A stretch of DNA of 12,194 bases from positions 1-12,194 of the forward strand of contig JBHLPW010000100.1 of NCBI GenBank assembly GCA_048939015.1, read 5' to 3'. The notes under the pieces are model-generated. The model did not search any database and had not been told where the DNA came from. It saw nothing but the letters and a program-made list of their open reading frames with translations. The stretch comes from Promethearchaeota archaeon (lineage in GTDB: Archaea > Asgardarchaeota > Lokiarchaeia > Sigyniarchaeales > SOKP01). A program made the translations under genes and the position numbers. Positions 1-4,563 of the stretch are shown in pieces (within the stretch, counting starts at the first letter, position 1; each line of letters opens with the position of its first letter).

Positions 1-996
1 TGAGGCACTTATGCCTTCTAATGAACTAGATGTTGACTGAATATTAGCTAAGATCTCACCAATCTTATTACTACTATGATCAACAGCATTTTTTGATTCC
101 TCTGCTAATTTCCTTACTTCATCAGCTACAACCGCAAAACCACGTCCATATTCTCCAGCCCTACCAGCTTCTATACTTGCATTTAATGCTAACAAATTTG
201 TTTGTTCAGATATACTTGAGATGATATTCAATATTTGTTTTATGTCCTGAGAATAATTCGAAATTTGAGCACCTTCGTCTGCTACCTTTTTAGTTGAAAC
301 AGATATTTCTTCAGAAGATGCATTAATTTCATTAGTATTAGCAGCTAATTCTGTGGCGATATTAGCAACATTTGTACTAACATCTGATGCGGTGTTTAAG
401 ACTTTTTGTAGAGTCTTATTAATGTTTAATATTCGAGTTTCTACAATTGCTACTAATGCTGTTACTAAAAAGATCATTTCAATAATACAATCAAGAAGGT
501 TCTGAAATTCATGTAAATCATAAGGGTCAAATAACGAAGTAATCAAATATTGGATTATTGTAAAAATCCCAAAACACAAGAAAGCGTGAGTTGGAGTTTT
601 TTTTACTTTATATACTCTAATTAATAAATAAGCAGCAAAAAGCATTATAAAAATCATGAATACTTCTATACCTATTATGGCGGGATTTATTACTATAATC
701 GAGCTCATTAGTGGAATTATTTTATTCTTAGACATCTTCAGTTTATTTTTTAAGAACGTTTGATAATATTCTAAAAATGCACTAGCACAGATTAAAATAC
801 CACCTAAAGATGAAAAAATTGGAGCCCCAATCATGATCTCACTATTGAAGAGTGCTAAAAATGATCCTAATTGAGCAACTGTAAAACAATATTGACCAGG
901 AAGCCATTTCCTCAACTCCTGTCTTTTGATGCTAACATAAGTGAATACCGTAATTCCCATTATTGCTAAAATCAACAAAAATTCTTCTGCAGCCAT
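1..996 (-). CDS. Methyl-accepting chemotaxis (MCP)-domain protein with a polytopic (about 6-7 TM) N-terminal sensor; 3' end runs off the window
   Basis: Not in the ORF track (truncated). My translation from ATG 996 is open to base 1: [23 protein letters not shown]..., several hydrophobic segments, then the MCP hairpin-tip motif [40 protein letters not shown]-like AGAGGTTA ends 6 nt before the ATG. Confidence 0.93.
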
Positions 997-1021
997 TGTC
1001 TATAACCTCTTTCTAAATTTT

Positions 1022-1717
1022 TTATTTCTCTTCTGTTCTTTTAGGTTTTATACCCTCAGCCACCCATTCAAACACTAATTCAAAAATATCATCAATATTT
1101 ATTCCTATAGATTCATAAAGAGTATGAAAATTTCTAAGAATATCAATTAACCCCCCTGTTAAAGATGTTAGTGTGAATGTCAAGAAACGAGGATCTAAGT
1201 CATCTCTAATGATTTTTTTATTAATCGCTTCTTTTATTGGTTTAAATACAAGTTGTTGATATCGCTGTATCTCAACATTCATTTCTGTTTCATTTCGGTT
1301 TAAAGGCTTTCTCTCTATTACTTTTTTATACATGTTTAGATAAACAGGTTCTTTTCGGATCTCACTTGCAATCATATATAGTTTTGGATATTTTTTTGAA
1401 AATTCATAAGTAGTATACCCTTTCGATAGAATACATTGGAATTCTGATTTTGATGTCAGGTCAGTAGTTTCGTAAGAATCGTTTAGTCTTCTGGTCGCCC
1501 TTGTTGCTACAGCCAAGTAAAGATCATCTTTCGAATCAAAATAATTATATAAGGTACCTTTACTTAATGATGCCTTAAGAGCAATATCTCCCATAGTAGT
1601 TTCATTGAATCCTTTAGAAATAAAAAAATCCATAGCTGTCGTTATGATTTCACGGCGTCTTTGTTCTTTTTCTCTTTCTTTTCTTTGTTGGATACGTTTT
1701 TTACGTTCGTTATTCAT
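1022..1717 (-). CDS. TetR/AcrR family transcriptional regulator
   Basis: N-terminal HTH RREIITTAMDFFISKGFNETTMGDIALKASLSKGTLYNYFDSKDDLY. Start placed at the second ATG (1717, MNNERKK); the ATG at 1735 is an alternative. Confidence 0.95.
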   Translation of the reverse strand: MNNERKKRIQQRKEREKEQRRREIITTAMDFFISKGFNETTMGDIALKASLSKGTLYNYFDSKDDLYLAVATRATRRLNDSYETTDLTSKSEFQCILSKGYTTYEFSKKYPKLYMIASEIRKEPVYLNMYKKVIERKPLNRNETEMNVEIQRYQQLVFKPIKEAINKKIIRDDLDPRFLTFTLTSLTGGLIDILRNFHTLYESIGINIDDIFELVFEWVAEGIKPKRTEEK

Positions 1718-1746
1718 CTTAATAAAATTGAACATGGGTAATTTTC

Positions 1747-1820
1747 TGACCGAGGGTCATTAAATATAATAGTGACATTTTTAATATTTAAACTTTTGGT
1801 CATTAATTGACCGCCAGTCA
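1747..1820. promoter_or_regulatory. tetR promoter with two palindromic TetR-type operators flanking a BRE/TATA box
   Basis: TGACC-GAG-GGTCA (1747-1759) and TGAC-CGCCA-GTCA (1808-1820), plus an extra half-site GGTCA (1798-1802). Between them the minus strand reads CAAAAG-TTTAAATA (TATA 1785-1792), oriented toward tetR. Confidence 0.75.
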
Positions 1821-1973
1821 GAAAGTAAAAAATAAATCTAGAACCTTTTTTTTGTAGATAGTGGCAAATGATGAGTGCTAGCATGAAGGTCATCTTTAAA
1901 AAGAAGATTATTAAAAATTGGAAATTTATCAAAAAGCTGTTTAGTTAGAATAAAAAAAAGAATTTGAGAAGAT

Positions 1974-2471
1974 TTAATATACCATGGCAGAAAGAATACA
2001 TTCTTTAATATAACTGCTGCTAGTAGCATGAGCCCATGTAACAACTTTTACTACATGAGTATCTGCTGTATTAGATTGGATGTCGGCTTTCATTATACAA
2101 GAACTATGAAAGAAAAGAGTTGACCCGTCTCCTATTACGGTCATTTCTGTATATGGCGATGGAGGCGAACCATTAATCTCAAAATAAAAGTCAATAGTAA
2201 GTGATCCACCACTACAATCTATATGTATTTCACAACTAAATTCAAGTAAAACAGAATCACCCGCATTGACGTTATACGTGACATTTAGATTAGGTATAAC
2301 TTCAATAACGTCTAAATTTAAATCAACTACATTATAATTTGTTGCGACGTAGATTCTCGGTTTTTCTGTGGGTGATTGTGCAGGAAGAATAAATTGATAT
2401 ATTCCCAAACCCAATGCTCCCATTGCCAATAATAGAGCAAATATTCCGAGCCCCTTACCAGAGCTTCCCAT
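1974..2471 (-). CDS. Hypothetical protein with an N-terminal membrane anchor/signal helix and a beta-rich extracellular domain
   Basis: 165 aa ORF. MGSSGKGLGIFALLLAMGALGLGIYQFILP hydrophobic helix, then a Pro/Ser/Thr linker and alternating beta-strand patterns. Confidence 0.8.
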   Translation of the reverse strand: MGSSGKGLGIFALLLAMGALGLGIYQFILPAQSPTEKPRIYVATNYNVVDLNLDVIEVIPNLNVTYNVNAGDSVLLEFSCEIHIDCSGGSLTIDFYFEINGSPPSPYTEMTVIGDGSTLFFHSSCIMKADIQSNTADTHVVKVVTWAHATSSSYIKECILSAMVY

Positions 2472-2644
2472 AATTAATCAACATTTTTATTTTCATTGAA
2501 ATTTTTATAAGTTATGATTTTAATTAGATTTCAGTTGTTAGAAACTAAATGAATTTTTATGAATTTAAATTTAAGTAGATATTCTGGGCAAAAAACTAAT
2601 AATAAGAGAATAAAATTACTAATGAAAAGTATATACATGAGAAG

Positions 2645-2761
2645 TGGGAAAGGGGGGCTTCGAACCCCCGACCTCACGGTTATCAGCCGTGCGCTATACC
2701 AGGCTAAGCCATTGAAGAGAAGCTTCGAATTAAAGAATCCACTCTCCCAAGGTGCTTTCCC
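2645..2761 (-). tRNA. tRNA-Ile(GAU) interrupted between positions 7 and 8 (5' end at 2748 with a 30-nt insert, or at 2761 with a 43-nt insert); CCA not encoded
   Basis: The minus strand from 2711 to 2645 folds as positions 8-73: TG, D-arm GCTT-AGCCTGGTA-TAGC, G26, anticodon arm CACGG-CTGATAA-CCGTG (GAT at 2684-2682), AGGTC, T-arm GGGGG-TTCGAAG-CCCCC, acceptor 3' strand CTTTCCC, discriminator A. Complementary 5' strands occur only upstream: GGGAGAG (2748-2742) and GGGAAAG (2761-2755). Confidence 0.92.
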
Positions 2762-3088
2762 ATTCAAATATTAGTACTAAATTCTATAATACTCTAAAAT
2801 ATAAAAATTAAATTAGTATTTATCATAGTACGATTTGATTGAATAATTTAAATAAAATATAGCTAAAAAATTTTTTGACAATTTAAAAGATAAAAATCAG
2901 ACTTTTACAGAATGCCCCACTACCAATTGTGTAATCAATTTAAATCCCTATACGTTATAATAGTAAAAATTTCTGTATTTGTAAGAACAGATTCATTATT
3001 TAAATCTATGGAGAAGCAATAAAACCTTATAATATTCTAAAAATTTCAAAAATAAAAATAGAAAAATAATTGATTTTTTGAAGATCAA

Positions 3089-3817
3089 TTAAGGTAGAGT
3101 TACCTTTCCACTATTTTCGTCAAGATTAAGAATTCCCTTAACAGCTAGTTGTTTAATTGTTCTAACTGCCATTATTGGTGGAACATCAAGAAGTTTCTTT
3201 AGGTCATCTAACTTTGCTTCTCCCTTGTCCATGATAGTTGCAATTATATCAACTTCATGGATCTCTTCATCAGAATTTTCAATCAGAAAGGAAGTAAAGA
3301 AATTCTGCTGTCTCATTTGATTAATTTTAGATTCAAGTTCATCCATTTTTTTCTGATAAGTGTTTGTTAATTCTACTTCTCGGTTTTCGTTTTCAACTGT
3401 TTTCTGATCTAATGTAGTTTTTTCTTCTTCTTTAACAGTGATTTTTTCATTTACAGCACTAAGCTTATCCTCAAGTTGTGTGAGTTCGAATGCAGGTTTT
3501 TTCAAATCATTGATGCTGGTTTCCAAAGTATTTGTTAGCTCAGATATTTTTGCTGCTAACTCATCTTTTTTTGTTTTTAGTCCCTCAATCGTACGGTCTA
3601 GTTCTTCTGATTTTGTTCTTAATTCTGTTAACTCTGAATTTTGAGCAGTTAATTTTTCTTTTATACTTTCTTCTTCTTTTTGCTCAACTTGCATAAATCT
3701 CCATGCTTCTCTTAATTGTGAAAGTACTTCTTCATTGTGTTTCTGGAGGACTTGCCAATAAGTATCATAAGCGGTCTCAAATTGCTCGATTAATGCCAAA
3801 ATATCTTGTGAACTCAT
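3089..3817 (-). CDS. Coiled-coil protein with C-terminal winged-helix domain (hypothetical)
   Basis: 242 aa with a long heptad-rich region. The C-terminus IIATIMDKGEAKLDDLKKLLDVPPIMAVRTIKQLAVKGILNLDENSGKVTLP has HTH + beta-wing character. The start overlaps the upstream stop (TGATG), with a GGAGGT SD inside the upstream gene. Confidence 0.85.
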   Translation of the reverse strand: MSSQDILALIEQFETAYDTYWQVLQKHNEEVLSQLREAWRFMQVEQKEEESIKEKLTAQNSELTELRTKSEELDRTIEGLKTKKDELAAKISELTNTLETSINDLKKPAFELTQLEDKLSAVNEKITVKEEEKTTLDQKTVENENREVELTNTYQKKMDELESKINQMRQQNFFTSFLIENSDEEIHEVDIIATIMDKGEAKLDDLKKLLDVPPIMAVRTIKQLAVKGILNLDENSGKVTLP

Positions 3818-4563
3818 CAGAAATCAACCTCCCCTTTTAAAGTTACTGTTCCACTTCCTTGATCATACTCGATGGGACCATTTTTTTGAACCATTTTTGT
3901 TAGTATACTCTTTGCTACATCTTCTCTTAAACCCATTGCTTGAACAATAGCTTTTAGATCGAGAGTTGTATTTGGTTGTAAAGCTTGTATAAGTTTTAAT
4001 TGAGCAGATTGAATATAACCCGCCTTGATTAAAGATTTCATTGCAGCTGCTCGCATAGCATATGAATTACTAAATTTCTCCTTTTTATCATATTCAGCTT
4101 GAAGTTGTGTTTCAAGTTCTTTCATTTTGTTATCGAATTTCTCTTGTAGATCTTTTAGTTCTACTATTCTGTTTTCTAATTCATCTAACCGAGCGCTACG
4201 AGTTGCTAATTCTTCTCTTCGTGCGGAAATTTTTGTTTGAGTTTCATTAAGTTCATTCTGCGCTTCTTGGATCTTATCAAGAAGACCTTGTCTTTGAGTA
4301 TTAAGTTCAGCATTATGTTCTTCTAATGAGGAAATATCCCGTTGATTCTGAGATATCTTATTCTTTAATGAGTTGATCTCATCATCGTTAGATTCAATAG
4401 TTTTTAAATCATTGGTTTTAGATTCTTCAAGTATTCCAATTTGTTCAAGTAAGGTGTTTGGTTGAGTTTGTAATTTAGGAATCGAATCTGAATTCAAACC
4501 ATTAAGTTCTTCAATAATAGAAAGTATCTTTTTGAGGGAGCTTTTTGTATCAGTTATGCTCAT
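3817..4563 (-). CDS. Coiled-coil protein with C-terminal winged-helix domain (hypothetical; probable paralogue of the downstream gene)
   Basis: 248 aa with a long heptad-rich region. C-terminus LIQALQPNTTLDLKAIVQAMGLREDVAKSILTKMVQKNGPIEYDQGSGTVTL. AAGTGA ends 7 nt before the ATG. Confidence 0.85.
   Translation of the reverse strand: MSITDTKSSLKKILSIIEELNGLNSDSIPKLQTQPNTLLEQIGILEESKTNDLKTIESNDDEINSLKNKISQNQRDISSLEEHNAELNTQRQGLLDKIQEAQNELNETQTKISARREELATRSARLDELENRIVELKDLQEKFDNKMKELETQLQAEYDKKEKFSNSYAMRAAAMKSLIKAGYIQSAQLKLIQALQPNTTLDLKAIVQAMGLREDVAKSILTKMVQKNGPIEYDQGSGTVTLKGEVDF

Follow-up and report, generated by a model that had tools for sequence, protein, structure and literature searches.

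The 12,194-nt window analysed here (the whole stretch, contig JBHLPW010000100.1 of a Promethearchaeota archaeon) carries on its minus strand what our computational evidence supports as a functional, single-copy gene for tRNA-Ile(GAU) with a putatively protein-spliced intron between tRNA positions 7 and 8. On sequence comparison and folding models, the gene most likely combines this non-canonical intron with a stand-in 5′ acceptor strand in its leader; the splicing itself, the order of the steps and the exchange of strands are deduced from these computations. The tRNA body from U8 to the discriminator base is complete (2711-2645), the 7 nt preceding U8 offer the 3′ acceptor strand no pairing partner, and excision of 2741-2712 gives a tRNA of 74 nt, all as proposed in the first-pass annotation of this DNA. 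Two 7-mers located 5′ of the body are able to pair with the 3′ acceptor strand, GGGAGAG (2748-2742) with one G-U pair and GGGAAAG (2761-2755) with seven Watson-Crick pairs. In the minimum free energy (MFE) and consensus folds it is the second, the leader 7-mer, that pairs with 2652-2646, and the intron forms an inner hairpin, its 3′ part pairing with exon 1. The features are as follows.

2755 to 2761, minus strand: spare acceptor strand (leader 7-mer GGGAAAG), a perfect Watson-Crick complement of the 3′ acceptor strand.
2749 to 2754, minus strand: spacer of 6 nt, part of which is predicted to pair with G9-U12 of exon 2 and close the 3′-splice-site loop.
2742 to 2748, minus strand: exon 1 (GGGAGAG), tRNA positions 1-7, the 5′ acceptor strand with a G5-U68 wobble; it equals the 5′ strand of uninterrupted orthologues.
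2712 to 2741, minus strand: predicted intron of 30 nt between tRNA positions 7 and 8, absent from about 60 orthologues.
2714 to 2717, minus strand: intron side of the predicted central helix (4 bp, partner exon 1 nt 2-5), 95.4% paired in 27 species.
2718 to 2720, minus strand: intron 3′ arm of the predicted inner helix h2 (partner intron nt 2-4, 2740-2738), with compensatory changes in two of three pairs.
2645 to 2711, minus strand: exon 2, tRNA positions 8-73, with the D arm, the anticodon GAU, the T arm, the 3′ acceptor strand and discriminator A; it matches the Rfam tRNA model and is 100% identical in dozens of species.

The identity of the gene is clear from its body. Cloverleaf, anticodon GAU, U8, T-loop and discriminator are all recognized in the Rfam alignment and by ARAGORN on an identical orthologue. 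The exons are collinear within 117 nt of one strand, and the gene is thus neither split nor permuted. ARAGORN with default settings made no call; with introns allowed, it miscalled 2644-2761 as tRNA-Ala. The Rfam tRNA model aligned to the interrupted gene over model positions 6-65 only (41.9 bits). The genome is a 4.86-Mb draft of 30% G+C in 125 contigs, 94.9% complete, in which the Rfam tRNA model has 22 matches at E ≤ 0.01, 20 of them above the Rfam cut-off. Many of its tRNA genes contain non-canonical introns, and further genes with long or multiple ones lie at C43:35380-35480, C77:17769-17951, C105:22412-22613 and C61:8515-8647 (T-loop and D-arm sites, genes of up to 202 nt). About 31 tRNA loci were located in this 94.9%-complete assembly, and many tRNAs of the genome thus stay hidden; a genome-wide hunt for the missing ones in G+C-rich islands returned 680 islands, a result too noisy to be of use. 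Heavily interrupted tRNA genes have been published for Asgard archaea (PMC11291895; bioRxiv 10.64898/2026.10.13.758758).

The boundaries of the intron are defined by orthologues. A DNA search of relatives and 135 genomes of the family traced the tRNA body to 99 genomes, with an identity of 97-100% in most cases, and the upstream sequence was compared at 100 loci. In about 60 species of the family the gene is uninterrupted at this position, exon 1 being joined directly to U8, an arrangement also seen at 16 congeneric loci; exon 1 then reads GGGAGAG, or GCGAGAG where the 3′ strand has G71. One uninterrupted orthologue is the exact predicted mature sequence; the full Rfam model matches it at 64.3 bits, and ARAGORN recognizes it as tRNA-Ile(GAU). 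Removal of 2741-2712 from the window accordingly yields the sequence of an uninterrupted orthologue and a canonical tRNA. The insert is common to 30 species from five genera; 28 of these have the 30-nt length and the other two an insert of 31-32 nt, and exon 1 is invariant except for a change of G2 to C2 paired with a change of C71 to G71. Because the orthologues join exon 1 to U8, GGGAGAG is exon 1 and the 30-nt extent of the insert is right. The ruler logic of the splicing endonuclease EndA points the same way: a 3′ cut fixed beside the 4-bp helix sets the symmetric 5′ cut after G7 of the downstream copy. Together, these two lines of evidence uphold the exon 1 and the 30-nt intron at 7/8 that had been proposed from the window's letters, and we consider it very probable that the intron is real.

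None of the homologues of the protein genes that flank the tRNA in the window (1-2640 and 2900-4563) was found beside the tRNA in relatives (L002-L072), even at 96% identity of the tRNA unit, and orthology is therefore carried by the tRNA unit and an upstream block of about 130 nt. By this comparison of neighbourhoods, the tRNA unit is seen to sit at a rearrangement breakpoint. The downstream ORF of 165 aa has no Pfam match. About 100 nt upstream of the tRNA unit, the window contains a palindromic A6T6 element (2864-2877, minus strand). Almost all genera of the family have this element, and after it a conserved AT-rich block, in front of tRNA-Ile(GAU), in interrupted and uninterrupted genes alike (L002-L020 and most of L087-L166), and A6T6 occurs only four times in this genome; it may be a promoter-distal or terminator-like element. 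In other genera, the same tRNA-Ile gene has other introns (L151, L158, L160, L162, L163, L166): several genera have a T-loop intron and one a D-loop intron, and L162 has the 7/8 intron and a T-loop intron together.

The precursor can form a splice motif of the bulge-helix-bulge (BHB) family. A relaxed BHB with a central helix, a bulge, an inner stem and a 3′ loop had been described in the first-pass annotation, and this geometry is reproduced. In the predicted structure, a central helix of 4 bp with one G-U links exon nt 2-5 to intron nt -6 to -3. The 5′ bulge consists of A6, G7 and the first intron base U, with the cut after G7, and an inner stem of 3 bp joins intron nt 2-4 to nt -9 to -7. 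The 3′ site, made up of two intron bases and U8, is part of a small internal loop; pairs between the leader and exon 2 close this loop. A pairing of leader CC with GG had also been claimed; here it is CC (2752-2751) with G9 G10, a closure of 2 bp, but this holds for the present genome only, since most relatives use a 4-bp leader-exon 2 helix that is 92.6% paired. By the strict hBHBh′ definition the motif does not qualify, as the internal loop with the 3′ site is 2x3 (here 3x3) and there are 0 bp in the strict outer helix h. It does belong to the relaxed class (HBh′, or bulge-helix-loop), with H of 4 bp and h′ of 3 bp in the window and covariation in two h′ pairs. H has 4 bp in 21 of the 29 interrupted species that were scored and 3 bp at the strict register in seven of the 29 (for one of the 30 species the upstream sequence was too short); several lineages fit the motif only in shifted registers.

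Comparison of 27 aligned species adds support of two kinds. The central helix is 95.4% paired, with changes confined to the intron side, and two of the three pairs of the inner helix h2 show compensatory changes. An exhaustive scan of the precursor found 47 of about 6000 boundary pairs that combine a 4-bp helix with a flanking helix, the orthologue-defined pair among them. Since so many pairs arise in a chance-like manner, the motif alone is only modest evidence, and its value is to corroborate the boundaries that the orthologues define. An alternative register with a 6-bp central helix is equally compatible, and the 4-bp and 6-bp registers probably interconvert. The junctions 8/9 to 10/11, which a TGG repeat makes equivalent in sequence to 7/8, were rejected: none of them gives a 4-bp helix, by hand or in the exhaustive scan, just as had been argued when 7/8 was singled out. 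In one relative the intron starts differently, and therefore only 7/8 and 8/9 remain equivalent.

The second element of the gene is the leader strand. A 7-mer complementary to the 3′ acceptor strand precedes exon 1 in all 30 interrupted genes from five genera, a co-occurrence drawn from related genomes that may reflect few independent events. A gap of 6 nt separates it from exon 1 (7 nt in two species). All seven of its bases are complementary in 26 species, six in three species and five in one. Among about 60 uninterrupted genes, no 7/7 complement was found within 45 nt; matches of 6/7 occur in five of them, at scattered positions. In this genome, only one of the 28 tRNA genes with a defined 5′ end has a 7/7 leader, namely tRNA-Ile(GAU), and the other 27 have neither an early intron nor such a complement. 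A separate feature was noticed in uninterrupted congeneric genes (L005-L020), whose leaders contain a conserved UUCCC-like pentamer, 5-10 nt upstream, that complements the 5′ acceptor strand, the mirror image of the spare strand of interrupted genes. Leaders of a similar kind occur at two further genes of this genome, C40 and C90.

The energetics of the precursor were modelled with constrained folds in ViennaRNA for 27 species. With the 7-mer present, the splice-competent conformer, in which the 7-mer occupies the 3′ strand and exon 1 builds the central helix, is predicted to outcompete the closed true acceptor stem in 26 of 27 species, with a mean advantage of 4.6 kcal/mol. When the 7-mer is absent from the transcript, the balance tips the other way in 25 of 27 species, with a mean penalty of 5.2 kcal/mol on the splice-competent conformer. 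The predicted shift of the conformer balance towards the relaxed-BHB conformer is thus about 10 kcal/mol. In two-dimensional models of the spliced product, the spare-strand helix is still preferred over the true acceptor stem by about 3 kcal/mol, and exchange would therefore need tertiary folding or the irreversible cleavage by RNase P.

These results suggest a scheme for maturation. In the precursor, the leader 7-mer 2761-2755 would replace exon 1 as the partner of the 3′ acceptor strand, and exon 1, displaced in this way, would form the central helix of the splice signal. Bases of the spacer would pair with G9-U12 and close the loop around the 3′ splice site. After a strand exchange, RNase P would then cut off the 13-nt leader and leave a normal tRNA of 74 nt. 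The enzymes that such a scheme calls for are encoded in the genome: a splicing endonuclease, represented by two EndA paralogues, both about 200 aa long and possessing N-terminal as well as C-terminal domains, an RNA ligase, RtcB (570 bits), and RNase P RNA. Asgard EndA is reported to be an (alpha-beta)2 enzyme with a loop that confers broad specificity (PMC5829648). That the spare strand holds the 3′ end of the tRNA as a helper in splicing is the reading that we favour, with a degree of confidence clearly lower than that in the intron itself.

The main competitor accepts a real intron, spliced at 7/8, and sees in the 7-mer no more than a relic of duplication or insertion with no role in folding or splicing. 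There are grounds for it. The 7-mer and spacer match tRNA nt 1-13 at 11 of 13 positions in most species, at 12 in L117 (relative G107) and exactly in L104 (relative G089), where one deletion of 43 nt, between direct repeats, would be enough to restore the uninterrupted form. This likeness in L104 and L117 suggests that the intron was born by duplication and has a one-step route to loss; more broadly, the sequences suggest that the intron and its helper arose together by duplication of the tRNA 5′ end. One shared ancestral event could explain the co-occurrence of intron and 7-mer without any function, and since the spare strand and spacer resemble tRNA nt 1-13, part of their conservation could reflect duplication or gene conversion. 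However, a mere relic would hardly be kept in five genera whose intron loops have strongly diverged, nor would it be expected to change as this one has. The 7-mer occurs in at least nine variants. Its substitutions, at positions 4-6 only and all facing U, are A/G toggles that preserve pairing with the 3′ strand, together with one pair-breaking A-to-U variant, and the positions facing C have never changed although the genome is AT-rich. It also carries C2 instead of G2 (GCG...) exactly where the 3′ strand has changed from C71 to G71. Pairing in the spare-strand helix reaches 98.9%, as compared with 32-68% in slid controls, and one of its columns is compensatory; the bases just upstream of the 7-mer and the first bases of the spacer vary freely. 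Exon 1, unlike the 7-mer, shows no A/G toggling. Such a pattern is expected if the 7-mer is selected only to pair and exon 1 is additionally constrained as a part of the mature tRNA. The predicted effect of the 7-mer on the conformer balance also speaks against a relic, which we therefore hold to be unlikely, though the most credible of the competing explanations.

A second alternative reverses the roles of the two copies: the 7-mer 2761-2755 would be the true 5′ acceptor strand, followed by a 43-nt intron (2754-2712) in which GGGAGAG is intronic. The seven Watson-Crick pairs are in its favour, MFE folding and the intron mode of ARAGORN both take the 7-mer as the 5′ end of the gene, and conservation begins sharply there. 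In the two species in which the two copies are identical, both readings even give the same mature tRNA. Against this, all uninterrupted orthologues use GGGAGAG with its G5-U68 wobble. The downstream copy is invariant and its partner in the intron changes one-sidedly, which is the pattern of an exon; the 7-mer varies among close relatives and forms a U-U mismatch in three species. Furthermore, no bulge-helix geometry exists at the junction of 7-mer and spacer, and the symmetric 5′ cut falls after the downstream copy. The 43-nt intron is improbable for these reasons. Finally, where default scanners make no call in a draft of 125 contigs that is 94.9% complete, one might suspect a pseudogene, an artefact of assembly, or a tRNA that is not spliced and has an extra arm, but all of these are very improbable here, because neither a second tRNA-Ile(GAU) body nor a second anticodon arm was found in the assembly, the body is 100% identical across dozens of species rather than decaying, the tolerated changes preserve the helices, and the insert and the whole architecture recur in 30 independent assemblies from different studies; the search for another copy and the look at conservation of the insert, both put forward at the outset as ways to expose a pseudogene or an artefact, thus came out in favour of a functional gene.

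The sites of archaeal tRNA introns are thought to be limited by the ability of the exon to build a BHB motif. In the present gene, the motif needs the acceptor strand itself, and the leader strand appears to resolve this conflict by a programmed alternative pairing, which would widen the range of sites at which tRNA introns persist. The architecture of the intron explains the invisibility of an essential single-copy tRNA to standard annotation in these genomes, and the likeness of leader and tRNA 5′ end offers a hint about the birth of introns by duplication. Among the closest prokaryotic relatives of eukaryotes, the gene would also provide a clean and testable example of RNA folding assisted by a leader. 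A wider proposal is that the stand-in is a dedicated cis-acting folding helper that lets protein-spliced introns live beside the acceptor stem, that intron and helper are gained by 5′-end duplication and lost together, and that pre-tRNA maturation in intron-rich archaea generally includes this so far undescribed step; we regard the chances of this proposal as evenly balanced. No description of a spare or decoy acceptor strand was found in the literature searched.

Among known systems, the intron resembles the non-canonical BHB/HBh′ introns of archaeal tRNAs, typified by the Thermoproteales, which are short, protein-spliced and located outside 37/38, have a 4-bp helix and splice-site bulges built in part from the exon, and are processed by a broad-specificity (alpha-beta)2 EndA (PMC4090602). 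It differs from them in position: the extreme acceptor-stem site given in that review is 3/4, and in the parts of the reviewed lists that were available 7/8 does not appear (PMC4090602). It also differs in that the motif has to take over the entire 5′ acceptor strand, and the review describes no conserved leader strand as a replacement (PMC4090602). As in published studies of Asgard tRNAs, most tRNA genes are interrupted, the introns are often missed by standard annotators, and the sites are BHB-compatible. Those studies concern other classes (Atabeya-, Freya- and Jordiarchaeia) and other sites (D-arm, T-arm and anticodon), and a 2026 census of Asgard archaea lumps acceptor-stem and junction cases as 'other' and leaves leaders unmentioned (bioRxiv 10.64898/2026.10.13.758758). 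A further likeness is to the split and permuted tRNAs of Nanoarchaeum equitans, Caldivirga and Thermofilum, in which leaders or trailers outside the mature tRNA build or stabilize the BHB and are then discarded (PMC3218864, PMC3978253). Unlike those genes, the one described here is contiguous, and its extra strand would occupy the 3′ acceptor strand as a competing helix rather than form the BHB itself.
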